This document shows positions 17,937 to 47,942 of a stretch of DNA of 64,000 bases, one piece after another. Position 1 is the stretch's first letter; each line of letters starts with the position of its first letter. This DNA comes from Candidatus Wirthbacteria bacterium. Lineage in GTDB: Bacteria; Patescibacteriota; CG2-30-54-11. The translations under genes and the position numbers were made by a program. The stretch covers positions 6,160 to 70,159 of the forward strand of contig CAISZI010000058.1 in NCBI GenBank assembly GCA_903889905.1. The letters run 5' to 3'. Below the pieces are notes generated by a model that worked only from the letters and a program-made list of their open reading frames with translations, was not told the origin of the DNA and ran no database searches.

Positions 17937-17973
17937 GTCCCAGCTTGGATCTATTCATTACCCACTACCTGTC

Positions 17974-19280: not shown

Positions 19281-19353
19281 AAGGTTGGTGAGTCGGGTGG
19301 GATTCGAACCCACGACCAATACCTTAAAAGGGTACTGCTCTACCAGCTGAGCT
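19278..19353 (-). tRNA. tRNA-Lys (anticodon UUU), CCA encoded
   Basis: Reverse complement GGGTCGGTAGCTCAGCTGGTAGAGCAGTACCCTTTTAAGGTATTGGTCGTGGGTTCGAATCCCACCCGACTCACCA folds as a cloverleaf. Anticodon loop CTTTTAA. Confidence 0.85.
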
Positions 19354-19459
19354 ACCGACCCATGAACGCTTCCTAGCGGGAGTGGCTGTCGTAGCTACAT
19401 CCCGTCTTGCGGGGTGAGCTACCGACCCCCAAAGGGTCACAACGATGAAACATGTTAGC

Positions 19460-19960: not shown

Positions 19961-20033
19961 ACGTTTTCGCTTTTAATATTTGATTTGCTCTTCGTCAATA
20001 CTACAACGCGCTCACGACTAAGGCAAGAAACAA

Positions 20034-21158: not shown

Positions 21159-21178
21159 AGCGCACAAAACCTTTTTGC

Positions 21179-29768: not shown

Positions 29769-31133
29769 TTACTTGTCGTCTGATTCCCACTTCAAGCGGT
29801 CAGGGTCATCGAATGCCGTTGATTTCCGGTCACCTGGTTGAGGTTCAGACTGCGTGCCAGTCGCAGGCTCCGTTTTGTCTGATTTACCACCAAAGCCACG
29901 CCGGATGCGTTGAATACTGGATCTGAGGCGACTGCGACGTTCGGCACGTTTTTTCTTTTTCTCCAAACGTTTACGAACTTCATCGGCAACTTTGCGTTGC
30001 TCAACTTCCTGTGTTTTTTCGTATTTGCGAATCAGTCTGCGGTTATATAATTTGAGGAAAAACCGAATCAGCATGGTCAGGATCAGAATGCCCCCCACAA
30101 TACCCAAAATCAGTTTCCAGGGAATGACCCAGAAATAGGTGGAAGCCACCAATTGGCGTTCCTGCTGGTTGGCGTCGTCATAGACAACAATCGCTTTGGC
30201 GCTATAACGCCCAAGGCGAAAGATATTCCAGTTTTTCCAGTTGATTTGTAACTGCGTTTTTTTCTGACCCTTCGCATCCGTCTGGGCCACACCGTTGGCA
30301 TCCACCAAAACCATACTCGTAATAAACGAATCCATCCAGTAGGATTGGTATTTGCGGATACTGCCCGGCAGGACAACACCTGCCTGTTCATTCATGTTGA
30401 AATTGCCAACGTTTTTGTCTTGCCAGTCATAGACAAAAATTGTCCCCGAAGGGGCAAAGTGAACGTTACCGGAATTTTGCATACGGACATAAAAATCCAC
30501 TGGCAGATATTCGTAAAGCTTTTTGCCTGTATAGAATTCCAGAATATTGCCTTCTACTTTGACATCACCCGAAACCGTAACCAGAATCAAACTGCCAAGT
30601 TGCCCCTGAAATCCCAGCGTCGTCGTGCCTGTAGTCGAACTGCCCTGCACCACATAAAAAATGCCGTAGTGTCCACCGGGCTCGGCATCGGATGGAACAT
30701 TGATCACATATTCAATATTGATGGAACCATTGGGTTCAATATCGTGCGGAGTTTTGTCAAACTCCATCCATTCTGCCAAATGATAACGGTAGGAATTGTC
30801 CATGGTATCCAGAATTTTGGGGTCGCCATTTTCCTGGTCATTGGCGGTAAAATTTTTGGTCGCCGGCGCTACCCCTTTGATGCCAATCTCCCCGTCGTTG
30901 CGGACTTTGATGGATCCGCGAATCTTCTGCCCGGGACTCGCGAAGTACTCTTTTTTGTTAGGGATAATAATCAGGTCAAATGGAGACTGGGCACTCGCCA
31001 GCTGCGGGAATGCCGCCAGCACAAACCCAAAACAACATGCAGCGGAAATCAGCGACAATAAAAACAGCGCCGCTCGTGTCTGTGGCTTTCCGGAGGTGAT
31101 TTGTTCTTTCATTTTTGTCCAGTTTGAAATCAT
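29769..31133 (-). CDS. Surface protein with signal peptide and C-terminal TM anchor; CscA/DUF916-DUF3324-like topology (paralog 2)
   Basis: Blocks EPGGHYGIFYVV...LILVTVSGDV...MQNSGNVHFAPSG align with the previous gene. C-terminal TM (LILGIVGGILILTMLI) followed by a long K/R/E-rich tail. Confidence 0.4.
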   Translation of the reverse strand: MISNWTKMKEQITSGKPQTRAALFLLSLISAACCFGFVLAAFPQLASAQSPFDLIIIPNKKEYFASPGQKIRGSIKVRNDGEIGIKGVAPATKNFTANDQENGDPKILDTMDNSYRYHLAEWMEFDKTPHDIEPNGSINIEYVINVPSDAEPGGHYGIFYVVQGSSTTGTTTLGFQGQLGSLILVTVSGDVKVEGNILEFYTGKKLYEYLPVDFYVRMQNSGNVHFAPSGTIFVYDWQDKNVGNFNMNEQAGVVLPGSIRKYQSYWMDSFITSMVLVDANGVAQTDAKGQKKTQLQINWKNWNIFRLGRYSAKAIVVYDDANQQERQLVASTYFWVIPWKLILGIVGGILILTMLIRFFLKLYNRRLIRKYEKTQEVEQRKVADEVRKRLEKKKKRAERRSRLRSSIQRIRRGFGGKSDKTEPATGTQSEPQPGDRKSTAFDDPDRLKWESDDK

Positions 31134-31254: not shown

Positions 31255-34200
31255 CTAATACTGGGCGCTTAACATCAGGTCGAGTGTATCCTGGTAGTTG
31301 CCAGAGGTCTGGTCAGCATTGATACGGATCATGTATTCGAGCGAGATGTTGTCACGAGCAGTAGAGACGTCATCACGAGCCAGGGTCTGGAACTGAGTGG
31401 ACAAAGGACCGGGGTCTTTGTTGTTGGGCTCGCCACCCTGGAAGGATGGAGCGACGAGGGTTGCGCCATTGACACCACCTGCGGTGTTACCGGCATTGCC
31501 CCAACGGGTACTTTGGCTGTAGGCATAGATACCGAAGCCCAAGTCAGAGGTATCTACCCAAGCGCGGAAGGGACTCGTATTATCAACAGTTTCGTCACGG
31601 ATCTGCAGGGTATAGCCATCCGCAGCGTTGGTATTGATCTTGATATTGTGGCCGCGGAAGTCGCTGACGCCTGAGAGGTCTGTCTGATAACCAGCTGGAT
31701 CAATTCTCCAGGTGGTCTGGTTGTCTTTGAAGAAGTAGGAATTGACGCCAGGGGTCACGCTGGTTGTAATGTCAGTGTTGCCAATGGTATCGGTATGGTC
31801 GGTAATCGTGAATTGGGTATCCAAACCTTCAGCGGTGGACAATACCCACAATGTCGAGTTGGAAGCGCGGTCGATATTGGCGCGAACGTTTACGTCAGTA
31901 GAGTTGATGGCACGATACAGGTTCGTCAGCAGTTTGGCAGCACGTTGATCCTGTGTGGTACCCGTGATGGAGGCGTAAACGTTGTTGGAAGCAAGCGCGG
32001 CATCAGCAGCAACACGTTTGAAGTAGTAGTTGACGCCACGGATGGTGACATAGTCGCCGGTAGCAGGAATACAAGCTTCATTGGCACCTGGGCCGCAGTT
32101 CATCTTGATGGTGATTTTGCCGTATTCGGTTTTGGCACCACCCAGGCGATAGAAAGCGTTAGGTTCGAGTGCCCCGAAGTCGACGCCGAGTGTGTCACGG
32201 TCACCTTCAACCTTGGAGAAGGCAAGACCGCCGTTGATTTCGATTGCGAGGTTGGGGTCGACACCGGCCGAAACCGTGATCTGGTCGTTATCAACGATGT
32301 AGACGGAGGTATAAGCCGTATCAAGCTGTTTGACGGTTGAACTGATATCCGAATCATTGACAACGGTAACCGTTGTTGCAGTGTAATCAGCGAGATAACC
32401 CAGGGTAAAGGCAGCGGTGGAATCAGTCCAGGTCCAGTAGAAGGTAGGACGGTCACCCGCTGCGGCAGTCGCAGCAATTTCAAATTTACCTGATGTCGGA
32501 GTGTCATAGGCCACCGCGTAGTTCGCGGCCGGGGCAGTTTTGGGGAATTTGGCCAGCTTGAGTTCAGCCGTCAATTGGGTGGCAACGTTAGCACCAGACG
32601 TTGCAGTGTTACTCACAATGCCACCAGCTGAATCACCGATCATGTCAAGCAGATAGGTACCAGCAACAATATCTGAAGTCCAGAGACCATTGGTGTACAA
32701 ATCATGCTTGTTTTCGGTAACGCCTAAGGTGCGAGCAGCTGTGGAGTTGGCGGCATCAGCAAAGTTGATGCCGGCGTCAGCAGTACCCGTTGCTTTGGCT
32801 ATTGTGAATTTGTTCGTAGTTGCATTATAAGCGACATTATATGTGTCCGCAGCTGCGGTTGGAGAAGCACTAAACATCCAGCGGGCGCCCTTGGTATGAG
32901 CGACACCTACACCCAATGCAATGTTAATGTTATTGCTCAATGGTTGAGCTGCACCCGAAATCACTGTGCCAGGATACTGCCAGGTAGTACCACCGTCAAT
33001 GGACCAGTGGAAGGTTCCAGGCGTACCAGTGCCATCAATTTCAACCAGGTATTTAATGGTGGTTGTACCGGTGTAAGTGTTCGAAGGGCCCGGTGTAGTG
33101 ATAGTAAGGCCAGCCACGCCGCCCGAACCAGTCCCTGTGAACGTTTTGGTAATAGTACCGCCGGTTGAAATAGTTTCTGTGTCATTGCAATTACTTAATG
33201 CAGTTGCAATGCCTGTTGCTGCTGCAGCACCAGCCAGCTCCGTCCCATTCACAATGCCACCACCACTATTGCTGACCAGGTCGCAGTTGGCATACGTACC
33301 GTCACCATTTAAGTCAACTGAGAGCAGGGCATTGATTTGTCCAGGTTGATCCGTAGTTGTACCTGTAACGGCATCATTGTTGGGTACAACATGGTCCGAG
33401 GTAAAGCCCAGATATGCGGCTGCCGTTGACGCTGTATCGCTGCTACCTGTGGCAATGAATGTGGCCGTGCCCCCAGCGTTGGTATCTTTGATCGTAAACA
33501 AGTTAGTGGTTGCGCTATAGGTAACGGTATAGGTATTTACACCAATGGCATTAAAAGTTGTTTGCAATGACGTAGCAACTGCCGCGCCAGTAATGAATGT
33601 ACCGGAGACAATGCCATTAGCGATAATGTTGAGACTTGTGTCGGCAGGGCCAACACCAGCCAATTTGTAACGTAAGGTATCATTGATGCCCGTCACGAAT
33701 TTGAATTGATCGTTAAAGACGAAGCGGCCAGCACCATTGGGGTTCCAGACAATACCAGAGTTACTGCCGACAGAGAAATCCCAGTAGTCACCGATCGTCC
33801 CGGTAAATGTCCAGCGGTCACCCACCTGATGAAGGGTTGTCGTTGTGTTAAAAGTAATTTTAACGCCTTCAGACAGAGGCAATTCATTCGTACTCAGAAT
33901 TGGTTGAGCCTGCTGAACCCAGGTGGTCCCACCGTCTTTGGACCAGCGGTAATTGTCGTAAGCAGTACCATTCTGTCCGCCGACGCCAGCAACACCACCG
34001 GAAAGGGATTCAATTTCAACACGGTAGTTGTTATTGGATGTACCCAAATAGGTACCAGAGGTGGTCAGGGTACCGGTGCCTGTTATTACGGGGGTTGAAG
34101 CGCTGATCGTTGGCCCAGCGTGTCCTGTCGTCGCGGCAAAAGTCACCGTGATGCCATTGGAAAGTTTCTGGGCGGCGCCCGTCATGGGCACATAATTGGC

Positions 34201-36183
34201 ATTCCAGTTGACACCAGCATCATCAGACCAGCGGATAGTATCAGTCGTACCAGCACTGTCAACTTGTACACGATAATTCATATTGGTTGCGTTGGTCGCG
34301 GTAGCACTCGTTGTGATGTCGCTCAAACCAGCACCTGTATGCACGGGAGAGGTTGGCGCTGAACGGGCAAAAGTCAGTTGTGAAGAAGAAAACGTTCCTG
34401 CAGCAATCTGGTACATGCCGGTCGTGGCAGGATTATAAATTTGTTGTTTACCGGTCTGAAGAGGAGAAGTTCCTTCATTGGTATTGCGGCCAATTTTGAC
34501 CTGCACATATTGTCCAGCGGCGATGCCAGTAGCATCCAGGTGAAAAAGGATGGAGTTGGCAGGAGTGGGATTGTGGGGATTGCAATACACGTTGACACCG
34601 TCAACACCGCTTAGGGTACGCAGAGTAAGGGTGTTGAAAGTGCCGTCTGTGCTGACAGCAAAGTCAACGTCTGTGAAAACCAAGTCGGTAGGAATCACAA
34701 ATCCGCTTGGGAATGTGATGACAACCTGACCAAAAGCGGGCACGGCCTGGGCGGTTTTGAAGCTAAGGGTATGGTCAGCAGCCACTAGCACGGCAGTTGT
34801 ACGTCCGTCTTTGGGTACGTTGTTGACCATGTCGATCGTGGGCAAGAAGTCCTGACCAGGAAAAGATGCCATGTGAACATAGGATTCTGTACCCGTTACA
34901 CCGCTGGAAACAACGGTGAACTTATTGGCACTACCCAAACCAAGTGATGTGACCGCGACATTGGCAGCGTTGTAGTCAACAGAAGCAGTTGCCGGATTGG
35001 TAGGAATATAACCTGCCCACAGGGACGAGATGTTTCTTTCGAGCATGCCATCAAGTCCGGGAGGAGTGGCGTTCCAAGCTCCGTGACCGATATAGTTACC
35101 AGCTGTAACCGTAATGGTTTCCGAACCGTTGGAGCTCTGTCCATCAAGGTCAAGGGTAAATTTATCATTGACACCCGTAATGATCGTGAACTGGGTTTCG
35201 TTGGGGCTGATGGCAGCCGTCGAGCGAACCGCGACAGTGTTAGCGGCGATGAAACCAAGCGTCGAAGTAGCCGTGCTGGTTGCGTCAGCCCAATAGATCG
35301 TGGGATTAATGGCGTTACCACCATCACCACGGATATTGAAGCGGTTGATATAGTCACCTGGTTCAGCAGAAGTGACGCCCGTTCCGTTGTTGGGCACATC
35401 TAAAGTAGAGGTAAAACCCAAATACAGGGCAGCGGTAGATAACGCGTCACCACTACCTGCAATATCAATACCGTTGACCCATAAGTTTTTGACAATCTTA
35501 AATTTCTGTGTTGCAGGGATGTAACTAACGGTATAAGTTTCACCACCGGCGTCCTTGGCAATCAAGGCCGTCTGGAGAGCAGCGGCAACATTCTGACCCG
35601 TGTAAGCAACGTGTGCCGTGAGGCCACCATCAGTGATCAGGCTTAAGGAAGCGTTCGCACCCGCTAAAGCGGCTGTATTGTAACGGAGGGTGTCATTGAC
35701 GCCCAGGGAAAACACATAGCTGTTGGTAGCAGAGTCAGCATAGGAGACCGTATAGGAATCGGACGCATGTCCGCCAATACCAGCTTGCAAAGCGGTTGCG
35801 ACTGCTTTGGCGACGTCCTGGCCCGAATAGGGCAACCCAGAGCTCAGGCCACCATTGGCGTGAGGCAAACCGCCATGCAATGCAGTGGTCAAATAGACAA
35901 TCGAATCACCACCTGTGGTGCAGTTCCCCGGAGTATGTGCACCAACGCCATCGTTGACGCAAATCTGGTCGTGCGCGTTATCGAATACGAATTTGGAACG
36001 GATCGGCGCATTACTTTCTGCATACCCGTTGGTAGCCGAACCAGTACCAGAACGTTTGATACGTGAAAGGCTGTCCTGGAATTCAGTCAGACGCCCATCG
36101 GCGCTACTGATTGACAGTGTCAGGTTGGACAATGTCATGGCGGCAATCACCAGCACCGCGAATTTTCTAAATACTTTTTTCAT
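31255..36183 (-). CDS. Giant (1642 aa) secreted surface protein with WxL-like C-terminal domain (candidate)
   Basis: Signal peptide MKKVFRKFAVLVIAAMTLSNLTLS. Highly repetitive T/G/S/N-rich beta-type sequence. No C-terminal TM. The last ~170 aa align with the C-terminus of the 36599-39646 protein (IKINTNAADGYTLQIRDET / LTISTNVGQGYMVTVEHDG; SLEYMIRINADQTSGNYQDTLDLMLSAQY / YVLYKIEISPSLLPGLYQNQITYFATATY). Confidence 0.5.
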   Translation of the reverse strand: MKKVFRKFAVLVIAAMTLSNLTLSISSADGRLTEFQDSLSRIKRSGTGSATNGYAESNAPIRSKFVFDNAHDQICVNDGVGAHTPGNCTTGGDSIVYLTTALHGGLPHANGGLSSGLPYSGQDVAKAVATALQAGIGGHASDSYTVSYADSATNSYVFSLGVNDTLRYNTAALAGANASLSLITDGGLTAHVAYTGQNVAAALQTALIAKDAGGETYTVSYIPATQKFKIVKNLWVNGIDIAGSGDALSTAALYLGFTSTLDVPNNGTGVTSAEPGDYINRFNIRGDGGNAINPTIYWADATSTATSTLGFIAANTVAVRSTAAISPNETQFTIITGVNDKFTLDLDGQSSNGSETITVTAGNYIGHGAWNATPPGLDGMLERNISSLWAGYIPTNPATASVDYNAANVAVTSLGLGSANKFTVVSSGVTGTESYVHMASFPGQDFLPTIDMVNNVPKDGRTTAVLVAADHTLSFKTAQAVPAFGQVVITFPSGFVIPTDLVFTDVDFAVSTDGTFNTLTLRTLSGVDGVNVYCNPHNPTPANSILFHLDATGIAAGQYVQVKIGRNTNEGTSPLQTGKQQIYNPATTGMYQIAAGTFSSSQLTFARSAPTSPVHTGAGLSDITTSATATNATNMNYRVQVDSAGTTDTIRWSDDAGVNWNANYVPMTGAAQKLSNGITVTFAATTGHAGPTISASTPVITGTGTLTTSGTYLGTSNNNYRVEIESLSGGVAGVGGQNGTAYDNYRWSKDGGTTWVQQAQPILSTNELPLSEGVKITFNTTTTLHQVGDRWTFTGTIGDYWDFSVGSNSGIVWNPNGAGRFVFNDQFKFVTGINDTLRYKLAGVGPADTSLNIIANGIVSGTFITGAAVATSLQTTFNAIGVNTYTVTYSATTNLFTIKDTNAGGTATFIATGSSDTASTAAAYLGFTSDHVVPNNDAVTGTTTDQPGQINALLSVDLNGDGTYANCDLVSNSGGGIVNGTELAGAAAATGIATALSNCNDTETISTGGTITKTFTGTGSGGVAGLTITTPGPSNTYTGTTTIKYLVEIDGTGTPGTFHWSIDGGTTWQYPGTVISGAAQPLSNNINIALGVGVAHTKGARWMFSASPTAAADTYNVAYNATTNKFTIAKATGTADAGINFADAANSTAARTLGVTENKHDLYTNGLWTSDIVAGTYLLDMIGDSAGGIVSNTATSGANVATQLTAELKLAKFPKTAPAANYAVAYDTPTSGKFEIAATAAAGDRPTFYWTWTDSTAAFTLGYLADYTATTVTVVNDSDISSTVKQLDTAYTSVYIVDNDQITVSAGVDPNLAIEINGGLAFSKVEGDRDTLGVDFGALEPNAFYRLGGAKTEYGKITIKMNCGPGANEACIPATGDYVTIRGVNYYFKRVAADAALASNNVYASITGTTQDQRAAKLLTNLYRAINSTDVNVRANIDRASNSTLWVLSTAEGLDTQFTITDHTDTIGNTDITTSVTPGVNSYFFKDNQTTWRIDPAGYQTDLSGVSDFRGHNIKINTNAADGYTLQIRDETVDNTSPFRAWVDTSDLGFGIYAYSQSTRWGNAGNTAGGVNGATLVAPSFQGGEPNNKDPGPLSTQFQTLARDDVSTARDNISLEYMIRINADQTSGNYQDTLDLMLSAQY

Positions 36184-36598: not shown

Positions 36599-39500
36599 TT
36601 AATACGTTGCAGTCGCAAAATAAGTAATTTGATTTTGATAAAGCCCGGGCAAAAGCGATGGACTTATTTCAATTTTGTACAGCACGTAGGCTTTGTCTTC
36701 AAAAACTGCTGTGCCACTATACATAATTTCCTCAGGCAATGTGCTCAATCCGGCATATTTATTGGCAAATCCCCGGAAGCGCGCCGGGCCGTTGCCAACG
36801 TCGTGCAATGTCACAAAATCAGTGTGGTACCCGATTACCCCACCCGTTGTTGAAGCCCAATATGTCGGAGTGCTGTTGGGGGCACTAAACGGATCGATGG
36901 TATCCTGATTTTGCAGAACAGTTCTCATTGGGCCGTCATGTTCAACGGTAACCATATATCCCTGCCCCACATTGGTGCTGATCGTCAACTTGTGGGCACC
37001 AATTTTGGGAGTATGAATGCTTAATATGCCGAAATCAACGGTATCACTGTCTGTACTGATGTCGGTCGTTTCCTTTTCCAAAAGGCCAGACCCGAGATTG
37101 AGTGTTCCTGCAGGAACACCCTCGATATAAAAATTAAGCGAGGTAATGACCAGCACACTGGTGATCGGGCCCCAAGCCCCTTCATTTCCAACCTTATCGC
37201 GAACTCGTAGCTGAAGATAGTACATTCCTGCCCGCTGAAATCGCAAATCCTGAGTCCAGGTGGTCACGTTACCCAGCCAGCGCTTGGCTATAAAATCATC
37301 ACCATTTACGGAGGTACCGATACGGATATAATATCCGTCCACTCCACTGCGATCATAAACGCCAGCCCATTGCCAGGTCGGGGTGACATCAGTCGTTGCT
37401 TGTGGGCCAATGATCACCGGGCCATCAGGAGCATCGCGGTCGTCATACTGGTAACCATCAAACAGTTGATAATTGGTCGAGGCAAGCGCCGAGCTCGCAA
37501 CCTGTCCCAACGAATCGCAAATCTGATAGCTGGGAGAACTTTTGCATGGACCTGTCGTATTGATCAAGCCGCCATGAATATAGGAATCACTCGCAAGATA
37601 CCAATCTGTGCCCTGGGAGTCAGACGCGGCTCCCTGGAGAGAACCGACAAACAGGTATTCCCGGCCGGCAGAATGAATCGCTGCTACAGCTGTAACATCA
37701 TTGCTGCGCAAAGGCGGGACACTGGCAGTCGTATAATTATTAATATTGCTGTCGGCACTCTGGACATCAATATTGGACTGGGTTACATAATTCCCAACCA
37801 TCCCCAGTTTAATCACGGAAACAGCCCCGCCACCGACATTGTCATTCGTTCCAACCCACATGATTCGTCCATCACGCGTCACATTTAAATCAGCAACTTC
37901 ATTGGTTGTCCCGCTGAGCAGTTTCGGGTACGGGCTGATGCGGGCGGCATTGGATTTGGAATAAATGGCCCAGGCATTCTGCGGTGTTAAGGCAGCGCCC
38001 GTCACCATCAACTCGTCCAACCCGCCATTGAAATACTCGGCGCCGCTGTGATCGCGTCCGATATTGAGCACAGCATTGGTGCCACTGATTGATCCAGAAG
38101 TCACCAGACCTGAGTTGTGGGCGGCTTCAATGCCATTGACATACAACGTCAAGGCTGACCCCGGCGCCCAAACCAGAGCAAATTGAGTCCAGTTATTATT
38201 ATCGACCGAACTGATGGATTGGACGGTATCCCAGTTTGATCCGTCATCTGAGACACGGCCGCCCAGCTTCCCGGCAGTATCGATATAGAGCTGGTAACCA
38301 ATTCTAATGCCGTCTGTCCGGTCAATTATTTTGACCTGGCCACCGGCAGTTGATCCCTGTTTAAACCAACCAGTAATCGAAAAACAACCTGTTCCGAAAT
38401 CAAAATTGGCATTGTAATTTTGCGACAGATATTGTGAGGACGACGAAGTAAATGAAATTCCATATCCGCGGACTCCTGACGCTGACCGGTTAATACCGCT
38501 GTTCACACTTAAATTATTGCCCTTGCCACTTTTATCAAGAAAATTTCCAGCTGCTTCTTCAAATGTCCACGTCCCCCTGACACTTCCAGGCATCTCTTCG
38601 GTGATATAATCTTTGGTGAAATACTTGACTGAACCTGTATTTTCACTACCAATCGGGCCTTCATTGATCACGGCTACCCCTTTGCTGCTGCCAACGTAAA
38701 TCGTATTGCGTGCAGGACCAATGGTACTGGTATTGACGGTTGCCTTGAGCGGATAGACAGTCGCATTGACGTTTTCCTGCAAGGCCGGCAAGGAAGAAGT
38801 AGAATATTTTGCCGCCGGTGTGCCTTGGTCGCTGCTATCACCCTGAATATTGTAAAAAACATCAATTTCACCCGTTGTCTGATTACTGAAATACAGGGAT
38901 CCGTCACTGTTCAATGCCACTTTGTTGATATTGTCGCTAGATGAGGCGGAATAATAATTGTGAACCTGATCCGTTGCTTCATTGATCACACTCACACCTG
39001 TCGCAGTGGCCAGTGCAAGATAATTCAAACCGGCGATCGTCGCGATACTGACGTCATGCACGTCGTTGCTGGCAATCTGTGAGACAGCCTCCGGGGTCCA
39101 GCTTGCGTTGCGATTACGCCCTTCGATGGCGGTCTTGGAGGAAAATTTATTCACCGTGCTGTAGTAAAATGCCTTGTCCAGAACAAAATCCAAGACGGTG
39201 AGTCTTGATGTGGAAGTGACGAAAATCTTGCCATCATGCGCGACAACTCCCGTGATTGTGCTGCTGTCCAGCATATTGTTGGCCGCTTTGTTAAAACGCA
39301 TCCAGAACATATGGCTTTCGGCATTAATAATGTCCAGGCTGGCATCGGTCACGACCAAGTAGGCATAACGCGGGAAATCGGTTTCTTTGCCACGTGTACA
39401 GGGTTGGGCACACGTTTCGCCAAACCAGCTGGTCTTCTGTGCATGCAAATCCTTGCGCCAGGCTCCCTGATCGGCATCAAGATCGGCATTATAAACATAA

Positions 39501-39646
39501 GCATGGCGTACGTTATTATCCCCCAATGTATAATTCCCTTGACTGTCGGGAAGTGAGGTATCATAGGTAAAAGCCTCTGCATTTGTTAAGGGAAGCAGAG
39601 TGAATAGAAGAAAAACACAAGCAAAGTAATAAATTTTGTTACGCAC
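36599..39646 (-). CDS. Large (1015 aa) secreted protein with LamG/concanavalin-like domain and WxL-like C-terminal domain (candidate)
   Basis: Signal peptide. Central LamG-like block (FDFGTGCFSITGWFKQ...LTLYVNGIEAAHNSG...NIGRDHSGAEYFNGGLDELMV). C-terminal ~170 aa homologous to the C-terminus of the 31255-36183 protein. No TM anchor. Confidence 0.5.
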   Translation of the reverse strand: MRNKIYYFACVFLLFTLLPLTNAEAFTYDTSLPDSQGNYTLGDNNVRHAYVYNADLDADQGAWRKDLHAQKTSWFGETCAQPCTRGKETDFPRYAYLVVTDASLDIINAESHMFWMRFNKAANNMLDSSTITGVVAHDGKIFVTSTSRLTVLDFVLDKAFYYSTVNKFSSKTAIEGRNRNASWTPEAVSQIASNDVHDVSIATIAGLNYLALATATGVSVINEATDQVHNYYSASSSDNINKVALNSDGSLYFSNQTTGEIDVFYNIQGDSSDQGTPAAKYSTSSLPALQENVNATVYPLKATVNTSTIGPARNTIYVGSSKGVAVINEGPIGSENTGSVKYFTKDYITEEMPGSVRGTWTFEEAAGNFLDKSGKGNNLSVNSGINRSASGVRGYGISFTSSSSQYLSQNYNANFDFGTGCFSITGWFKQGSTAGGQVKIIDRTDGIRIGYQLYIDTAGKLGGRVSDDGSNWDTVQSISSVDNNNWTQFALVWAPGSALTLYVNGIEAAHNSGLVTSGSISGTNAVLNIGRDHSGAEYFNGGLDELMVTGAALTPQNAWAIYSKSNAARISPYPKLLSGTTNEVADLNVTRDGRIMWVGTNDNVGGGAVSVIKLGMVGNYVTQSNIDVQSADSNINNYTTASVPPLRSNDVTAVAAIHSAGREYLFVGSLQGAASDSQGTDWYLASDSYIHGGLINTTGPCKSSPSYQICDSLGQVASSALASTNYQLFDGYQYDDRDAPDGPVIIGPQATTDVTPTWQWAGVYDRSGVDGYYIRIGTSVNGDDFIAKRWLGNVTTWTQDLRFQRAGMYYLQLRVRDKVGNEGAWGPITSVLVITSLNFYIEGVPAGTLNLGSGLLEKETTDISTDSDTVDFGILSIHTPKIGAHKLTISTNVGQGYMVTVEHDGPMRTVLQNQDTIDPFSAPNSTPTYWASTTGGVIGYHTDFVTLHDVGNGPARFRGFANKYAGLSTLPEEIMYSGTAVFEDKAYVLYKIEISPSLLPGLYQNQITYFATATY

Positions 39647-40787: not shown

Positions 40788-41921
40788 TTATAAACTGGTC
40801 AAGACAACGAACTGGCTGGTAGTACTTGTATAATATTCCAGCTCGGCGCGCAGCGTCCACGCGTTCCCGTCTGACTGGTACAAATAACCTGTGCGCTTTT
40901 CCGTGTCGGCCAGATTGGGATCGTGCGGCAACCTGGTCAGATATACAGGTACCAGTGCACTGGACAGAGCAAAAACATCCGCTTCGCTGTGACTTGGCGG
41001 AAAAGCCTGGTGAACAACAAAATAATCCGCCAGCGCGCGCTGGATAGCGGCCAAATCATCCCGTCGTTGATTGTCCCTGGCCTTTTTGGCAGTATCGGCC
41101 ACAATTTCATCCAGGTTGGCGTCAACGCTCTGGCTGACCACCTGCAAGTCGGTGATGCTGCCAGGCCCGAACTCCCAGAGTACGTCCACGGGCAAGACCT
41201 TGCCCTGAAAAGTCGTCAGTCCCGCCTTAAAAATAACCTGATAGATCACCTGTGGGTCCCAGTGGTTGAGCGCCAGCACAAGCTGCACAGTGTGGCTGGA
41301 AACCGCATAATTCACCTGTTTGACCAGATTGACAGGGGAAGCACGTATCTGGACCACGAAATGCACGGCGTCGGCGGTTTGTTTGTCCAGCGCGCTGCTT
41401 AAATTCAAACTGATCTGTGGTGCGGCACCAAGCAAAGTGGCGCTTAAAGGTTGTCCGGCCGACGGCAGCGAAGACTGCAGCGTCAAGGGCATATCCGAAA
41501 TTTTGAAACTGTCCGCCAGTGGTTCGGTGCGACGATATAGCATGGCTTTGAGCTGGGCTTTTTCTCCCGCCGCCACCTGCAGCTCCGCACTCCAGGGATA
41601 GGTGTTGTCTGATTCCAGACGTACCGCATAAGTGCCCGGTTCGAGGTTGGCAAAAACAAAAGGGGTGGTATGACCAGTATCTTTGAGGTCAAATAAAATT
41701 CTGACGCCGGTTGGCTCCGACGCAACCACCAGCTCGCCCTTGCTGGAAGTTGTTGTCTTGTCAGTTTGCGTGGGCGAGAAATCCTGTGCAGTATTGGCCG
41801 TATTGGCGTTGTTTGGTGCCGGCGTCTGCTGCAGTGACCAGACAGTCAGCGCCACGCCCCCCAATAACATCACCAGGATCAAACTGCCGATAATTTTTCT
41901 CATGTCGTTGGACCAACCCAT
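40788..41921 (-). CDS. Membrane-anchored PEGA-domain protein with C-terminal pilin-like (GspG/pseudopilin-type) domain
   Basis: N-terminal TM. PEGA-like block LVVASEPTGVRILFDLKDTGHTTPFVFANLEPGTYAVRL. C-terminal ARDNQRRDDLAAIQRALADYF...FPP motif resembles the pseudopilin core (RD..R..DL..I..AL..Y). Confidence 0.5.
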   Translation of the reverse strand: MGWSNDMRKIIGSLILVMLLGGVALTVWSLQQTPAPNNANTANTAQDFSPTQTDKTTTSSKGELVVASEPTGVRILFDLKDTGHTTPFVFANLEPGTYAVRLESDNTYPWSAELQVAAGEKAQLKAMLYRRTEPLADSFKISDMPLTLQSSLPSAGQPLSATLLGAAPQISLNLSSALDKQTADAVHFVVQIRASPVNLVKQVNYAVSSHTVQLVLALNHWDPQVIYQVIFKAGLTTFQGKVLPVDVLWEFGPGSITDLQVVSQSVDANLDEIVADTAKKARDNQRRDDLAAIQRALADYFVVHQAFPPSHSEADVFALSSALVPVYLTRLPHDPNLADTEKRTGYLYQSDGNAWTLRAELEYYTSTTSQFVVLTSL

Positions 41922-41930: not shown

Positions 41931-43082
41931 CTATTCATTGCCAATGACTTCCAGGTTCCAGCGTGGAATTTTCTGCTCACCGCCCTGCTCCAGCTGTACC
42001 AGCACCAAATCCACGCCCGGGCCCAGGAGCGGGTCATCATTCGAGAGTTCCGGTAAAACGACGCGACCGGTTTTGCCAAAATTGATGCCAGCAATGACGC
42101 GGACCATTTGCTGCCTGGTCAAATTGACCCAAAACGAATTGGCAGTCTCAAATCCGGAAATCGGGCTCGAAAGCGAATCTGAGGGAAAGACGACACCGGG
42201 TTTGTTTTCATCGAGTTTGTCGAGAATGACCAGCTCGCCGCGTAGCGTTGACAAAAAATCCCAGAATTTGCGGTGCATCCGCAGCCGTCCAAACCCTTCG
42301 GTCAAAATCACAGCCGTGGCCTTGATATTGGCGTTGCTTTCATTGCCATCAAATTCCTGACTCAAATATTCCTGGTAATCACGGGCTGCTATGCTGGACG
42401 CCACAATGCCGCGCACACCCATGGCCATGGCGCGTTTCAAGACATCATAATCAACAGGCCCGCCGCTTAGAATAATTTTGTCGCAACAGCCAGCATCGAT
42501 GTGACGCGCCTGCAGGGGATCTTCATATTCGGTCACTGTATCAATCGTGCCCATGGTCGGCAGTCCAATGCCCAGCAGTCCACGCATAATACTGGAACGC
42601 AAGGTAATGTCAATTGCCCTGTCGCCTTCGATATTGGTGACAACGCCTTCAAAGCCAGCCTCCAGGCTAAAAGCAATCGAGGTCCTCTGGATCTGAATTT
42701 CACCTGTGTGGGTATTAAAATTTGTCAAAATTCCATCGACTGGGGAGCGAAAAACGCGGCGGCCAAAACCGTGCCTTTTTTCGGCGAGCACTTCACTGGC
42801 TTTGACCGGTTCGCCGGGTTTGCGGTGCAAATGCCGATGAATAGATCGTGGTGAAGCGCCCAAAATGGAAGCCAGGTTGAAACGCTCAGACTCTCCGGGC
42901 ATATCACACTGACCAATCACCTGCGCTGCCGTGACCTTTTCGCCGCGCGCGACCAGAATCTGGCCCTTGACCGGAAGTTCACGACGCAGGGTGTATTCGA
43001 CATGATGCATGATTTTGCTACGGCTATCTCTGACCCACACGGCGTTAGACCCTCCCGTCAAAGTAAAATCCCTTGACGCCAA
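41931..43082 (-). CDS. Hypothetical protein (383 aa), translationally coupled to the upstream ASKHA ATPase gene
   Basis: Coding-like ORF with 38-bp overlap with the 43045-44679 gene. No motif recognised. Confidence 0.35.
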   Translation of the reverse strand: MASRDFTLTGGSNAVWVRDSRSKIMHHVEYTLRRELPVKGQILVARGEKVTAAQVIGQCDMPGESERFNLASILGASPRSIHRHLHRKPGEPVKASEVLAEKRHGFGRRVFRSPVDGILTNFNTHTGEIQIQRTSIAFSLEAGFEGVVTNIEGDRAIDITLRSSIMRGLLGIGLPTMGTIDTVTEYEDPLQARHIDAGCCDKIILSGGPVDYDVLKRAMAMGVRGIVASSIAARDYQEYLSQEFDGNESNANIKATAVILTEGFGRLRMHRKFWDFLSTLRGELVILDKLDENKPGVVFPSDSLSSPISGFETANSFWVNLTRQQMVRVIAGINFGKTGRVVLPELSNDDPLLGPGVDLVLVQLEQGGEQKIPRWNLEVIGNE

Positions 43083-44679
43083 CTTTCACCCGGATGACGA
43101 CTTCTTCAGCCATGGCAAAGCCACTCACCTTCGCTTTGGATTCAGGCTTGATGCGAAGGATGGCGCTTTTGCCAACAGGCGCGCCCACGGCATGAATTTC
43201 TCCCATTTTCACATCAAACGCTTCCACGTCGGGGTTGTTGGTGTCAATTGTTACCCGACCCAAAACACCTTTGTGACGGGGTTTTCCGGCAAATCGCACA
43301 AAATCCAGCACGCGCACCAGATACTGTTCCACATCCAGTTCTTCCACCGAATGAGGATGAGCCTTCAGCAGCAACCCCAGGAGCGGCAGGACCGCGGCTT
43401 TGTTCATCCATAAGGTGGCCGTAAACGGCAAATTGCTCGGCAGCAAGGCATCATCAATTAACGTCTCGAGGCGAGTGCCCAGACCAAAAAAAGAACCACT
43501 CAGGACAATATGTTTGGGTTGAAAATCCGGCGGGATGGACTGCCAGGCGTGCCCCAGAATTGTTTTGACGATCATGGTTTGCCACTTCAAGTCGGCGGCA
43601 TCCGGCACTGTGTCCGGGTAAAGCCGGTGATTGAGAATACGGTCGCGGAATTGCTGGCCTTCATTCTCTGGCCAAAGGGAAACCATTTGTTTGAGTCCGG
43701 CATCATCCAGGTACAATTCCATCGGCGACGACAATCCCATCTGCGGCAGCACTTTCATACCAAACAGCTGTTTGTGCCCGTGCTGCTCATCTTCTTTGGC
43801 GTAAATCGACTCGGCTTCTGCCCAAATTGGAATGTTATAACCATCAATGTAACGCGCCCACAGAAGTCGCGTTTCCGTAGCCCCGATATCCACCAGCAGC
43901 ACATTTTCGTGCCAGTGCTCGATCAGTAATGAAAGTGAAGCCAGCAATGAAGAATAATTGGATTCAACTTCAGCGTGAATTTTGGGTAATAATAAATCCT
44001 GGGTCTGGGCACGGTGTAATAAAATCTGCTGCAATTCGACAAACAGCTGCATATAGTTTTTGTGGCGTTTGCCAGGCCACAGGTCAGGCACCAGGTACAC
44101 CTTGTGCTGCTCGGCAAAAATACCACTTAAGGGTGTGAGAAGTTCTTCGCAGCCAACAAAGAAAATCGGCAGCGTAAATGGCACCTTCGCCACAGTTGCC
44201 GCCAGATTTTGTGCCACATGCAGCACCTGCCTCGATTTGTGACGTTCAAAACCACCCACCATCAGCACCGCGTCCAGGTCTTTGTTTAGATCCTGATTGG
44301 ATTTGTGCCAGAATGTCTGTTTGGGCGTGCAGATACCCATGACTTCGATGCCCAGCGTCTGGCAAAAACGCAACGCATCGTCAATATCATCGTTGGCAAA
44401 ACCACCAATCATCACCCTGAGCTGCGGCAAACGGCTGGTGGATGCCAGTACCGTGGGTGGCGCTTCGTCCCCGACCAACAACCTGGACAAATCCCAGGTA
44501 GCCTGCGCGTTGCCGATGGGCGGATCGACAAAAAGCCCGCTGGAATTGCTGGGCAGGATTTCAAACGCGCGCCACTCGAGGTGATTGTCATTTTTGACAA
44601 AAACCCCAACTTTGGTAAACACATTACCAACGTCCACCGCGAGCCATTTATTGGTTTTTGACTTTTGCGTTTTAATCAT
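43045..44679 (-). CDS. Actin/Hsp70-fold (ASKHA superfamily) ATPase with C-terminal beta-rich domain
   Basis: Phosphate-1 like LAVDVGNVFTKVGVF, phosphate-2 like VLLVDIGATETRLLWA, adenosine-like HIVLSGSFFGLG. Cannot discriminate Hsp70-like from FtsA/PilM/EutA-like. Confidence 0.4.
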   Translation of the reverse strand: MIKTQKSKTNKWLAVDVGNVFTKVGVFVKNDNHLEWRAFEILPSNSSGLFVDPPIGNAQATWDLSRLLVGDEAPPTVLASTSRLPQLRVMIGGFANDDIDDALRFCQTLGIEVMGICTPKQTFWHKSNQDLNKDLDAVLMVGGFERHKSRQVLHVAQNLAATVAKVPFTLPIFFVGCEELLTPLSGIFAEQHKVYLVPDLWPGKRHKNYMQLFVELQQILLHRAQTQDLLLPKIHAEVESNYSSLLASLSLLIEHWHENVLLVDIGATETRLLWARYIDGYNIPIWAEAESIYAKEDEQHGHKQLFGMKVLPQMGLSSPMELYLDDAGLKQMVSLWPENEGQQFRDRILNHRLYPDTVPDAADLKWQTMIVKTILGHAWQSIPPDFQPKHIVLSGSFFGLGTRLETLIDDALLPSNLPFTATLWMNKAAVLPLLGLLLKAHPHSVEELDVEQYLVRVLDFVRFAGKPRHKGVLGRVTIDTNNPDVEAFDVKMGEIHAVGAPVGKSAILRIKPESKAKVSGFAMAEEVVIRVKVGVKGFYFDGRV

Positions 44680-44746
44680 CCTGGCACACTAATAACAATA
44701 TGCCGTCATCATAAATCAACCGCCATGAGAGGGCAAGTGCATAGAT

Positions 44747-47494
44747 TTATAAATCCTGTTCGCGAATGATCAGGGTATCCCCGCGGCGCACATCACCGCG
44801 CAGGACTTTGCCGGCAATCGGATCTTCGATCTTGGACTGGATGACACGACGCAGTGGCCGGGCACCATTGAGGGGGTCAAAGCCCAGTTCAGAGAGTTTT
44901 TTGACCGCTTCTTTGGTGATTTTGAAATTGATGTCCTGTTCCTTGAGCTTTTCCTGGATGCCACGCAGCATGCGTTCGGCAATCGTATAAATTTCATCCT
45001 GCCCAAGGGGTTTGAAGACAATAATGCCGTCAAACCGGTTGAGCAGCTCCGGGCGATAGTACTGAGGCAAAACATTGTGCAGCAAATCCTGCTTGATCTC
45101 TTCGCTGTTACGGCCACTTTCGACACCATCCTGAATCATTTTGGCGCCAGCATTCGAGGTGGCGATGATGATGGTGTTGGAAAAATCGACAAGTCGGCCG
45201 GTGGAATCCGTCAGTCTGCCATCGTCAAACACCTGCAGAAACAGGTTGTGTACATCGGCATTGGCTTTTTCAAATTCATCCAGCAGCACCAGACAAAACG
45301 GCCGATGCCGGACGGCTTCGGTAAGTTGCCCAAACCCGGCATCCGAGCTGGATTCACCCGGTGGCGCGCCAATCAGGCGATAAATACTTTCCTTGGTGAC
45401 AAATTCCGACATATCAAAATGCACCATCAGTTTTTCGTGACCAAAATAAACCTCGGCCAGCGTCTTGGCCAGTTCCGTTTTGCCCACGCCGGTTGAGCCA
45501 ACAAAGAGAAAATTGGCAATCGGTTTGTGTTGGTCGCGTAAACCGACACGCGAACGGCGTACGGCATTGGCCACCATACTCACCGCTTCGTCCTGGCCCA
45601 CCAGCCGTTCGTGCATGATGCTTTCCAGTTTGAGCAGGCGGTCGGTCTCGTCCACGGTAATGTCGTTTACCGGTATTTTTGTTTTGTTGGAAACCACGGC
45701 GGCAATATCTTCGGCCAGCACATATTTGCGTTTGGACTGTTTGCCAACCAGCACGGCCGCTTCGTCAAGCAAATCAATGGCCTTGTCCGGCTGCACATTG
45801 TCGTGGATATATTTGTTGCCAAACGTGATCGCCGCCTTGATCGCCTGATAGGTCACGATGACTTTTTGTTTTTGTTCAAATTGCAAGACCACCGTTTCCA
45901 GGATTTTAACGAGATCATCAAATTCCGGTTCCTTGACTTCCAGAGTGGAAAAACAACGGGCAAAGGATTCATTGGTTTCGACAAAACGGGAATATTCTTT
46001 CATGGTCGTTGTCCCAACGCACTGGAATTCACTACGGGTAAGTGCGGGCTCAAAAATGGAAAATGCGTCGAGACCACTTCCAGCTCCGGCACCGGCGCCT
46101 TTGAGCGTGTGAATATTGTCAATGGCGAGAATGACGTTATGCGAACGACTCGCTTCTTCGAGCACGCGACTTGCTACCTGGGAAAATTGATTGCCATTAT
46201 CGCTCGCCCCCACCAGACTGCCCACATTCAGTTCCACCACCCTTTTGTTGCGCAGCGCGCCCACGACATTGCCTTCGACGATGCGCTGCGCCAGGCCTTC
46301 GACCAGGCTGGTTTTACCCACGCCCGGATCGCCAATAAGAAGCACGCTGCTTTTGGAGGAACGCCCGAGGATGCGCGCCAGATCGCTGATTTCTTCGGTG
46401 CGGCCGATGACTTCCCTGAGCCTGCCTTTGCGCGCGGCCTTGGTCAGGTCTTTGCTGTATTTGTCCAGGGTTACAGTCCAGCCCGACGACCAGCCCAGAT
46501 CCATTTTGCCGGAACGTTTAAAACTTTTGATGTCGAGCTGCGTCCACCATTTGTCTTTTTCTTCCTGCCGGTCCAGCCAGTAAGTGACATTGCGCACATC
46601 AGACAGATAAATACGCTGGTCACGAAAATATGCCAGAGTCCGTTCATCGCCTTTGACAAAACTGAGCACCAGATCGCGCTGGCGGATCGAGGCGTGCCCA
46701 AGCAACCAGGATTCTTCAAACGCGTCAATCAGCACGTCCTTAAGCCGTGCCGAGATGATGATGTCGTCATCGGCACGCAAATCCACTTCGCCCAGCAAAT
46801 TCTGCACAAAAGTCTGCATCGCCTGCAAGTCCAGATTGAGCCGCACAGCGAGTGTTGTAATTTCGTCGCCCTGCGTGAGCCGCCGCAACAGCTGATAGGG
46901 ACGCAGCACGCGTCGCTTTTTGACACGGGCTTCCTCCAGCACGTCATCAAACACCTGGCGACCGTGCAGGCTCAAAAGACTGGTCAGCTCAACAAACGAC
47001 CGCGAGGATTGCTTTTGTTTGATGTCATGCCAGTGCACCATATCCGTGTCAGCCATGGCAATCCAGGCAGAATTCGCCTTGGCCGGAACCCTGGCCAGAG
47101 GATGCCGACCGCGCGTCATCCAGTAAAAATATGTCAGCCAGAACCAGATTAAGCCAAAGAACGCAGCGCTCCAGATCCCCAGCGCAAAAAATCGGTCATA
47201 GGATAAAGTCAGCTGGTTATCCAAAGCGAGCAGGTTCCGCAGCCCAACCAGCAGGCAGAGGATGCCACCCGCGAGCAATAACCAACGCAGACAAAGCGCA
47301 AAGGTATGTTGCAATTGATAGTGCAAATCAGTGACCACAACTTTGGGCAATGTCGCATACACAATCCAGCCTTCGTATTCCGCCCATACACCCACGCCAT
47401 CGCACTCAGGGCAGGAACGACCTTCTAAAATGCCTTTGCCGGCGCAGGCTGGACAGTGGAATTTGTGTAATTTTGATTGGCGTTCTTCGCTCAC
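44747..47494 (-). CDS. ClpA/ClpB-family AAA+ ATPase with N-terminal zinc ribbon and two TM helices (membrane-anchored)
   Basis: CPACAGKG...CPECDG zinc ribbon. Two hydrophobic helices (FALCLRWLLLAGGILCLLVGL; ALGIWSAAFFGLIWFWLTYFYW). Clp N-domain-like repeats. D1 Walker A GDPGVGKTS. D2 Walker A GSTGVGKTE with sensor-2 GARPLRR. Confidence 0.8.
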   Translation of the reverse strand: MSEERQSKLHKFHCPACAGKGILEGRSCPECDGVGVWAEYEGWIVYATLPKVVVTDLHYQLQHTFALCLRWLLLAGGILCLLVGLRNLLALDNQLTLSYDRFFALGIWSAAFFGLIWFWLTYFYWMTRGRHPLARVPAKANSAWIAMADTDMVHWHDIKQKQSSRSFVELTSLLSLHGRQVFDDVLEEARVKKRRVLRPYQLLRRLTQGDEITTLAVRLNLDLQAMQTFVQNLLGEVDLRADDDIIISARLKDVLIDAFEESWLLGHASIRQRDLVLSFVKGDERTLAYFRDQRIYLSDVRNVTYWLDRQEEKDKWWTQLDIKSFKRSGKMDLGWSSGWTVTLDKYSKDLTKAARKGRLREVIGRTEEISDLARILGRSSKSSVLLIGDPGVGKTSLVEGLAQRIVEGNVVGALRNKRVVELNVGSLVGASDNGNQFSQVASRVLEEASRSHNVILAIDNIHTLKGAGAGAGSGLDAFSIFEPALTRSEFQCVGTTTMKEYSRFVETNESFARCFSTLEVKEPEFDDLVKILETVVLQFEQKQKVIVTYQAIKAAITFGNKYIHDNVQPDKAIDLLDEAAVLVGKQSKRKYVLAEDIAAVVSNKTKIPVNDITVDETDRLLKLESIMHERLVGQDEAVSMVANAVRRSRVGLRDQHKPIANFLFVGSTGVGKTELAKTLAEVYFGHEKLMVHFDMSEFVTKESIYRLIGAPPGESSSDAGFGQLTEAVRHRPFCLVLLDEFEKANADVHNLFLQVFDDGRLTDSTGRLVDFSNTIIIATSNAGAKMIQDGVESGRNSEEIKQDLLHNVLPQYYRPELLNRFDGIIVFKPLGQDEIYTIAERMLRGIQEKLKEQDINFKITKEAVKKLSELGFDPLNGARPLRRVIQSKIEDPIAGKVLRGDVRRGDTLIIREQDL

Positions 47495-47856
47495 ACGATG
47501 ACCAGACTAGTGAATAAAGCCAACAGCAGCAGCGGCGGAATAAGCATCCACCCAACCAAAAGTAACGCATCCACGATCAGTACCATGAGCAGACAGGTCA
47601 AACCAACCGCAATCCAACCCAGACGAATGACCACACCAATGCCGCGTCCAACCACGGCATAATCCTGGTGTAGTGGCTGCAGTGTCACCAGTTGCTTGAG
47701 CATGACCAGAAACTGAAACGTGTCCTCAACCAAGGCAATCAGAAACAACGAAAAAAAGAATAAAATCGACAGCATTTCGCCATACCACCACCGCAGCCAA
47801 TAGACAGGCTGGAGATAAACAGGGCGGCAGGGTTTGAATAATACGCGTTCAAACAT
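47491..47856 (-). CDS. Small hydrophobic membrane protein (121 aa) overlapping the Clp-like gene start by 4 bp
   Basis: Three predicted TM helices. ATGA overlap suggests translational coupling with the downstream AAA+ gene. Confidence 0.35.
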   Translation of the reverse strand: MFERVLFKPCRPVYLQPVYWLRWWYGEMLSILFFFSLFLIALVEDTFQFLVMLKQLVTLQPLHQDYAVVGRGIGVVIRLGWIAVGLTCLLMVLIVDALLLVGWMLIPPLLLLALFTSLVIV

Positions 47857-47942
47857 CAGGGGAGTTCCCTTGACGACAATTAATCATTTTAGTATAACAC
47901 ACGGTCGGCAAAACGAGGAGTACGGCAACTCAAGCAGAGGAA

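Follow-up and report, generated by a model that had tools for sequence, protein, structure and literature searches.

The window analysed here is a 64,000-nucleotide stretch of a Candidatus Wirthbacteria contig (CAISZI010000058.1), and the locus under study occupies its positions 41,931 to 47,856. Four genes lie there, all on the minus strand, encoding a small membrane protein, a Clp/Hsp100 ATPase (hereafter Clp), an ATPase of the ASKHA fold and a protein called here the partner (lengths in amino acids, aa):

47,491–47,856, minus strand: 121-aa membrane protein (open reading frame)
44,747–47,494, minus strand: 915-aa atypical class-I Clp/Hsp100 ATPase (open reading frame, Pfam/NCBIfam)
44,680–44,746, minus strand: 67-nt spacer between the Clp and ASKHA genes (sequence)
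43,045–44,679, minus strand: 544-aa ASKHA ATPase (open reading frame, Pfam PF13941)
41,931–43,040, minus strand: 369-aa partner protein (GTG start; the mechanical 383-aa reading frame runs to 43,082)

They belong to an array running in one direction that encodes a PfkB kinase, DUF3048, the small protein, Clp, ASKHA, the partner, a PEGA protein, QueA and a LamG-domain protein. The four minus-strand reading frames described in an earlier note on this DNA are all found, as are the motifs it quoted (GDPGVGKTS, GSTGVGKTE, GARPLRR, LAVDVGNVFTKVG, DIGATETRLL and LSGSFFGLG). Two gene boundaries differ from that description. The small gene, described there as encoding three transmembrane helices, does precede and overlap the Clp gene, by GTGA and not ATGA: the junction reads GTC ATC GTG TGA, and GTG is the Clp start. 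This overlap indicates that the two genes are translationally coupled. The overlap proposed between the ASKHA gene and a 383-aa protein does not stand, since the most likely partner start, in agreement with the deposited P0003 and with the N-termini of homologues, is the GTG at 43,040, which gives 369 aa and a 4-nt spacer 3' of the ASKHA gene.

The Clp ATPase and its small membrane protein

The assignment of the 915-aa protein to the Clp family, already made in the earlier note together with an N-terminal C4 zinc ribbon, is well past chance expectation. Its Pfam domains are AAA (D1, the first AAA+ module), AAA_lid_9, AAA_2 (D2, the second module; 8e-55) and ClpB_D2-small (1e-22), and its NCBIfam matches include ClpB (7e-190) and ClpA (7.5e-172). 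It scores about half of every NCBIfam equivalog cut-off: 633 bits vs 1232 and 547 vs 1417 for the ClpB models TIGR03346 and NF008118, and 573 vs 993 for the ClpA model TIGR02639. The latter aligns in a single stretch (Clp residues 179–910 to model positions 6–732 of 734); the ClpB, ClpK, ClpG and ClpV models each align in two. The features of the protein are the following:

47,390–47,455, minus strand: C4 zinc knuckle CPACAGKG...CPECDGVG, Clp residues 14–35 (NF058604, Pfam)
47,126–47,308, minus strand: predicted transmembrane hairpin, Clp residues 63–123 (hydropathy)
45,746–46,471, minus strand: D1 AAA+ module, Clp residues 342–583 (alignment to ClpB 1qvr and ClpC 3j3t)
44,750–45,730, minus strand: D2 AAA+ module and D2-small domain, Clp residues 589–915 (alignments)

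With ClpA, ClpC and ClpB the protein shares two AAA+ modules with AAA_lid_9 and D2-small; its D2 resembles those of ClpB and ClpC about as closely as the latter two resemble one another. With ClpA it also shares the collinear order N-domain, D1, D2 and the lack of an M-domain. Motifs were read from residue-level alignments to Thermus thermophilus ClpB (1qvr) and Bacillus subtilis ClpC (3j3t), and compared with three orthologues, L001, L090 and L002, the last from a Candidatus Wirthbacteria contig. The coiled-coil M-domain, inserted in the small domain of D1, is the Hsp70-docking element of ClpB. A check for such a middle coiled-coil domain had been proposed in the earlier note, and none was found in the alignments: T. 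thermophilus ClpB residues 392–511 and B. subtilis ClpC residues 402–468 have no counterpart, and where the ClpB domain would insert, Clp residue 583 meets 582–589 directly. Nor was the ClpP-docking tripeptide [IVL]G[FL] found in the D2 loop region NAGAKMIQDGVESGRNSEE, where the VGF of ClpC lies opposite ‘dgvesgrns’ in the alignment. Clp thus differs from ClpB and ClpC by the first absence, and from ClpA and ClpC by the second.

The catalytic and pore-loop motifs set the protein further apart from the three reference Clps. In D1, the Walker A motif is GDPGVGKTS, the Walker B motif is IDN in place of IDE, and the pore loop is SDNGNQFS where proteins of the ClpB/ClpC type have KYRGEFE. In D2, Walker A, Walker B, the arginine finger and the sensor-2 motif GARPLRR are intact, while the pore loop is GESSSDAGFG where the reference has GYVGYEEGG. 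The orthologues follow the same pattern. Their D1 Walker B motifs are IKN, IPY and IHN, and the D1 Walker A motif of L001 reads GVGRT, with a lysine to arginine change. Their D2 pore loops are GQAEG, with a 4-residue deletion, GRAGSETG and GQSGSEAG, and their D2 Walker motifs, arginine finger and sensor-2 GARPL[RK]R are all intact. Both pore-loop tyrosines, that of KYRG in D1 and that of GYVG in D2, are therefore replaced in the window protein and in the three orthologues. As the D1 Walker B motif, and in one relative also Walker A, is degenerate, D1 is most likely a structural, non-hydrolysing ring, and D2 alone would hydrolyse ATP; by its motifs, the protein does not possess the two catalytically competent AAA+ modules of a ClpB. 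The lack of an M-domain and of a ClpP loop, the replaced pore tyrosines and the degenerate D1 Walker B motif together indicate that this Clp is not a ClpB-type disaggregase. It is a new variant, an atypical double-AAA+ Hsp100 with the domain order of ClpA.

The N-terminus bears two elements that ClpA, ClpC and ClpB do not have, a zinc knuckle and a predicted transmembrane hairpin. Residues C14, C17, C28 and C31 are invariant in three orthologues and form, in the window protein, two CxxCxGxG motifs of the DnaJ/anti-TRAP type making one zinc centre. The anti-TRAP model NF058604 matches residues 13–36, and PF15777 and PF00684 match the knuckle at E ~7e-4, under their Pfam cut-offs. A C4 zinc module at the N-terminus of a Clp ATPase is also found in ClpX and ClpE, and the motif spacing is that of DnaJ and anti-TRAP; the window protein differs in its single zinc centre, which scores under the Pfam cut-offs and is followed by transmembrane helices. 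Kyte-Doolittle hydropathy with a 19-residue window identifies two hydrophobic segments, at residues 63–92 and 102–123 (peaks of 2.3 and 1.9), separated by a loop of ~10 residues. Orthologues have hydrophobic segments at equivalent positions, in keeping with the membrane tethering predicted in the earlier note. Basic residues, RGRHPLARVPAK, follow the second helix, and the two-helix hairpin is predicted to place the AAA+ body on the cytoplasmic side together with the zinc knuckle. In the stretch that separates the hairpin from D1, the Clp-N-like domain that had been proposed is weak: Pfam returns no match at E≤1 for residues 128–350 taken alone. The signal comes from the full-length ClpA model, from residue 179, and from the alignment to the ClpC N-domain, from residue 194, and Clp_N matches are on record for orthologues.

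The 121-aa protein exhibits about three hydrophobic segments, within residues 23–53 and 68–121 by the same hydropathy measure, and no Pfam, NCBIfam or PADLOC family matches it. Its orthologues are encoded immediately 5' of the Clp gene in L001 and L090; the family shows 35 invariant columns and a conserved loop motif, MLKQ(I/L)VTLQPLHQDYxxVGRGIGVVxRLGW. To note, an extended -10-like element, TGtTATACT, is located at 47,891–47,899 on the minus strand, ~35 nt upstream of the small gene; it matches the consensus, and the number of such matches is within shuffled expectation.

Two known membrane-associated AAA+ proteins may be compared with this Clp. FtsH has two N-terminal transmembrane helices by which its cytoplasmic AAA+ ring is anchored, the entry face turned to the membrane, and Clp is predicted to share this topology. 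The AAA module of FtsH is of the classical kind and single, has an aromatic pore loop and is fused to a protease; Clp differs in having a double Clp-type ring and neither a protease domain nor a protease docking loop. Torsin is a Clp-D2-like AAA+ protein of the endoplasmic reticulum and nuclear envelope, devoid of aromatic pore-loop residues, that works with transmembrane partners. By analogy, it resembles the window protein as a Clp-related AAA+ with an aromatic-poor pore loop that acts at a membrane. Torsin, however, is a single, lumenal ring without an arginine finger of its own, whereas D2 of the window Clp retains arginine finger and sensor-2. We know of no description of a membrane-tethered bacterial class-I Hsp100 with a non-catalytic D1 and both pore tyrosines lost, and a full-text literature search for a membrane-anchored Hsp100 or ClpB found none.

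The ASKHA ATPase and its partner

The earlier note had placed an ASKHA-fold ATPase directly downstream of Clp, and this is borne out by structure prediction and by Pfam. The AlphaFold2 model, built on 35 homologues (pLDDT 85, pTM 0.88), consists of an ASKHA core and an extra C-terminal β domain of about 90 residues (~454–541); an Hsp70-type substrate-binding domain was not found in it. Residues D16, G18, G142, G143, G266 and G395 are conserved. The protein matches the Pfam MutL/GlmL family PF13941 over residues 13–373 with 32.4 bits for a cut-off of 27. This is the sole Pfam family at E≤0.01, the Hsp70, FtsA, PilM and EutA models giving no match at that level, and no NCBIfam or PADLOC match was obtained. 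A homologue located directly upstream of a partner gene in L018 reaches 431 bits to PF13941 over its full length. The ASKHA protein is a divergent member of PF13941, in the MutL/GlmL, hydantoinase-like branch. Foldseek against the PDB returns generic ASKHA matches with TM-scores of about 0.22–0.36, among them N-methylhydantoinase, acetone carboxylase, PilM, Hsp70, NTPDase and FtsA, and a search with the family profile gave no relative with a solved structure.

The founding GlmL/MutL members are encoded in operons of coenzyme-B12 mutases, such as the clostridial glutamate mutase. The window protein shares the Pfam family with them, by a match that is weak but above the cut-off, the homologues of the pair in other phyla giving strong ones. 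It differs from them in lacking a mutase context, in its extra C-terminal β domain and in its obligate neighbour, the partner. Within the family, ASKHA proteins of the Wirthbacteria-related clade are devoid of a C-terminal tail of ~50–60 residues that is present in the consensus of other members. The family is sparsely represented among known sequences. With the ASKHA protein as query, a word-indexed search returned 2 homologues, while an exhaustive HMMER search of 1.84 billion proteins with a two-sequence profile retrieved 99 representatives at E<1e-3, of which 7, at <1e-30, are close relatives. A metagenome scan with the clade-level alignment added a single locus, L088.

The partner is predicted with a pLDDT of 88 (AlphaFold2) and consists of three parts. 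The N-terminus is made of barrel-sandwich hybrid (BSH, lipoyl-like) domains: the L018 orthologue matches RnfC_N and NQRA_N, and GcvH and NqrA are matched weakly by the profile of the family. The centre is an α/β domain with an invariant TEGFG, to which no family is assigned. The C-terminus is a KOW/SH3-like barrel with an invariant P-R-x-N-x-E; KOW PF00467 is matched with 23.2 bits, above the cut-off of 22.3, the family profile matches Spt5 KOW at 8e-5, and Foldseek of the model retrieves NusG (Thermotoga maritima) and Spt5 KOW domains. The partner therefore shares domain folds with NusG and Spt5 (KOW) and with RnfC, NqrA and GcvH (BSH), but possesses neither the NGN domain, nor Fe-S or flavin modules, nor a conserved lipoyl or biotinyl lysine. 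In two alignments, of 34 and 15 sequences, no lysine is invariant or nearly so. A function as lipoyl or biotinyl carrier was considered and ruled out, given that the hairpin tip bears no conserved lysine; with such carriers the partner has just the BSH fold in common. A carrier tied to the glycine-cleavage and LplA neighbours described below was rejected on the same ground, that context also being absent in other phyla.

Distribution and linkage of the pair

The GTDB was scanned with one genome per species and with the narrower partner-family alignment as query. The partner is encoded in at least 569 of the 600 candidate stretches of these species genomes, most loci belonging to Eisenbacteria, Poribacteria, WOR-3, Zixibacteria, Fermentibacteria, Stahlbacteria and their relatives. 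A word-indexed search with the partner gave 48 homologues, from Wirthbacteria, Patescibacteria and bins labelled Planctomycetota and Bathyarchaeota. In unrelated contigs, distant partner homologues stand directly 3' of a PF13941 gene of 600–670 aa, with a Clp gene near none of them, and the ASKHA/partner pair also occurs in a bin labelled Planctomycetota and one labelled Bathyarchaeota, in Patescibacteria and in another lineage.

Linkage was counted over the best 80 partner loci, of which 63, with at least 2.2 kb of upstream sequence, could be assessed for ASKHA. In 36 of these 63 the ASKHA gene immediately precedes the partner gene, and 7 partial cases come in addition. No Clp/Hsp100 homologue was found within ±10 kb of the partner in any of the 80 (phmmer, E<1e-10). 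Partner genes also occur without a nearby ASKHA gene: 26 of the 63 assessable loci have no ASKHA gene within 10 kb, including L019–L021, L025, L028 and L031–L033 (Poribacteria) and L024, L048, L050 and L053 (WOR-3, Stahlbacteria and others). The neighbours are then unrelated housekeeping genes, e.g. those of ABC-2 permeases, topoisomerase I, GyrA or transketolase.

Clp precedes ASKHA just in the Wirthbacteria-related loci, namely the window, L001, L002/3, L088 and L090/91. The conservation of this order, which the earlier note had proposed to check, thus holds inside this clade and is not found outside it. The lack of a conserved linkage to Clp was what that note had set against its own reading, and beyond this one clade the linkage is indeed lacking. 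Inside the clade, conservation also covers PfkB and DUF3048 on the upstream side and QueA and LamG on the downstream side. Because the whole flanking block is syntenic, the adjacency of Clp and ASKHA is indistinguishable from phylogenetic inertia.

Other lineages embed the pair in other surroundings. In Eisenbacteria, Zixibacteria, Fermentibacteria and related metagenome-assembled genomes, it stands in a long conserved array (L018, positions 252–15,232; also L029, L063, L070, L083 and others). Upstream, this array encodes uvrA, gcvT, gcvH, gcvPA, gcvPB, a 156-aa protein with two transmembrane helices and a 147-aa protein, followed by ASKHA; downstream of the partner, it encodes DUF6754, three membrane proteins with 5, 2 and 4 transmembrane helices, and an LplA/LipB-like ligase. 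In some Zixibacteria-type loci (L051, ~11,100–21,000; L064, L086 and L037), the four-gene membrane cluster headed by DUF6754 is present in two to three tandem copies downstream of the pair, and it is found near the pair at other relative positions in L004 and L006. These repeats and varied positions suggest a real link between the pair and the DUF6754 cluster. Hidden Markov models of the cluster families and of the two small upstream families detected no counterpart in the window, L001 or L002. In Patescibacteria (L092, 6,942–13,262; L093; L095, 130–5,639), the pair is placed between rpsF-ssb-rpsR and the genes of two PDZ proteases, one CtpB-like (S41) and one HtrA-like, an order kept in two distinct lineages, and the ASKHA gene is shortened to 237–384 aa. 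Full-text searches of the literature library used found no paper mentioning PF13941 or DUF6754, and nothing relevant on GlmL with glutamate mutase or on Wirthbacteria.

Readings of the locus and its surroundings

We consider that the locus most probably consists of two separable modules standing side by side, with a probability of about 0.6. The first, made of the small membrane protein and Clp, would be a membrane-tethered Hsp100 variant. The zinc knuckle and the hairpin would hold the Clp hexamer at the inner face of the membrane, its N-terminal entry face turned to the bilayer, D1 serving as a non-catalytic structural ring while D2 hydrolyses ATP. Without an M-domain, Clp would be uncoupled from Hsp70, and without a docking loop, uncoupled from ClpP. 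Given that both pore tyrosines are lost and that the D2 loop varies even in length, it would most likely remodel or extract a dedicated, membrane-proximal client rather than act as a general threading disaggregase, and the 121-aa protein, translated together with Clp, is the foremost candidate for the part of this client or of a Clp partner. The second module would be a widespread two-gene unit composed of a GlmL/MutL-type ASKHA ATPase working with, or on, its BSH-KOW partner. A role as ATP-driven reactivating chaperones has been suggested, without demonstration, for relatives in this branch of ASKHA proteins. By analogy with them, the unit probably works as a conformational switch or a chaperone that depends on ATP and uses the BSH and KOW domains of the partner for binding. 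The spacer between Clp and ASKHA may carry a promoter of its own for the pair, as a weak sigma-70-like match, TTGCCC-17-TATGAT, lies in it at 44,708–44,736 on the minus strand.

Several observations weigh against the two-module reading or against parts of it. The small gene, Clp, ASKHA and the partner are contiguous in all clade loci that have upstream DNA (the window, L001, L002/3, L088 and L090/91). This contiguity holds though ASKHA identity drops to about 35%, and PEGA, RtcB and CTP synthase genes come and go beside the four-gene block. The promoter-like match in the spacer is within chance, the count of such matches in the region not exceeding shuffled expectation. The loss of the pore tyrosines does not prove a loss of threading, and the D2 loop of the window Clp has a phenylalanine. 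The transmembrane helices of Clp are deduced from hydropathy alone, helix 1 of L001 falling under the threshold used. The mechanism proposed for the second module is drawn from analogy alone, and no experimental function is available for any PF13941 member with this partner.

These observations bear on a possible, clearly less probable alternative, according to which the four genes encode one clade-specific machine. The pair would supply the soluble core of an ATP-driven, membrane-associated and so far undescribed system, widespread in at least 569 species, that docks to the DUF6754 cluster in the sampled candidate phyla of the FCB type and to Clp with its small membrane protein in the Wirthbacteria lineage. 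There, Clp and the small protein would have captured the ancestral pair, replacing the membrane proteins of the DUF6754 cluster, and Clp would be a non-threading factor for the assembly, recycling or membrane anchoring of the ASKHA/partner complex. Speaking for such a machine, the genes remain together in all clade members although their proteins are 35–50% identical and the surrounding genes vary. The pair is bordered, in those sampled phyla (Eisenbacteria, Zixibacteria, Fermentibacteria and relatives), by genes of small membrane proteins on its upstream side and by the four-gene membrane cluster on its downstream side, and these flanking genes are not found in the window, L001 or L002; the clade ASKHA proteins moreover lack the C-terminal tail. 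Yet the synteny of the clade extends to the clearly unrelated PfkB, DUF3048, QueA and LamG genes, and the four-gene contiguity is therefore not specific. Furthermore, Patescibacteria retain the pair with neither Clp nor DUF6754 nearby.

A membrane-localised bi-chaperone, in which ASKHA in the role of Hsp70 passes membrane proteins or aggregated ones on to a disaggregase of the ClpB kind, was the tempting analogy drawn in the earlier note. It is now largely refuted and very unlikely. The Clp and ASKHA genes are adjacent on the same strand in five related loci, Hsp70 nucleotide-binding domains are among the Foldseek matches of ASKHA, and D2 of Clp is closest to that of ClpB. However, Clp possesses no M-domain, its pore-loop tyrosines are both lost and its D1 is degenerate; ASKHA has neither a Pfam HSP70 match nor a substrate-binding domain, and its Hsp70 matches, at a TM-score of about 0.26, are no better than those to PilM, NTPDase and hydantoinase. 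Across phyla, the neighbour that ASKHA keeps is the partner and not Clp; the ASKHA family is without Clp in every other lineage sampled, and 0 of the 80 partner loci have a Clp gene within 10 kb. Finally, the window encodes a canonical type-I DnaJ (20,034–21,167, minus strand) with a J domain, a CxxCxGxG domain and a C-terminal domain, which points to an ordinary Hsp70 system probably being present in this organism. No DnaK-sized gene lies directly upstream of this DnaJ.

About as unlikely is the identification of ASKHA as a GlmL/MutL-type reactivase of a coenzyme-B12 mutase, which its membership in PF13941 would favour. No B12-dependent mutase gene was found in the window or in the other annotated ASKHA contexts, and no mutase or B12 gene stands beside the pair in the loci examined. 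The genes beside it are those of glycine cleavage, of DUF6754 membrane proteins, of ribosomal proteins or of proteases, and the pair persists in the reduced genomes of Patescibacteria. Least probable of all is a cytoskeletal or pilus actin homologue with the downstream protein as its adaptor, the FtsA/PilM-like option of the earlier note: Foldseek places Pseudomonas aeruginosa PilM and T. maritima FtsA near the top of its matches (E about 4e-8 to 2e-6), but their TM-scores on the query, 0.23–0.28, are level with those of Hsp70, NTPDase and hydantoinase and thus reflect the shared ASKHA core only, neither family gives a Pfam match while PF13941 passes its cut-off, and no pilN/O/P/Q or fts gene was found in the contexts examined.

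A Clp of this kind probes the distance to which such rings can move away from the threading paradigm, and would be a bacterial counterpart of membrane-associated, pore-loop-poor AAA+ proteins such as Torsin. Many proteins that carry the annotation ‘MutL protein’ (PF13941) are one half of a conserved pair, the other half being a BSH-KOW protein. Found in hundreds of uncultured species, including reduced Patescibacteria, this pair is a well-defined target for functional discovery, and the analysis corrects the attractive but wrong analogy with ClpB and Hsp70.

Regarding the surroundings, PADLOC assigned no defence system: Clp gives generic AAA+ matches, and the small, ASKHA and partner proteins give none. 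Rfam and tRNA scans of the window detected just two tRNAs, both distant from the locus. Between the partner gene and queA lies the gene of the PEGA-domain protein (40,788–41,921, minus strand), which has an N-terminal transmembrane helix; as it is present in L089 and absent in L001, L002 and L090, it is a variable insertion in the array. The window also encodes several very large Thr/Ser/Gly-rich proteins, predicted to be located at the surface, among them those at 31,255–36,183 (minus strand, 1642 aa), 10,286–16,558 (plus strand, a reading frame of 2090 aa) and 36,599–39,646 (minus strand, 1015 aa). The last has a Laminin_G_3 domain and adjoins QueA in relatives too, and a 454-aa protein (29,769–31,133, minus strand) exhibits a C-terminal transmembrane helix and a basic tail.

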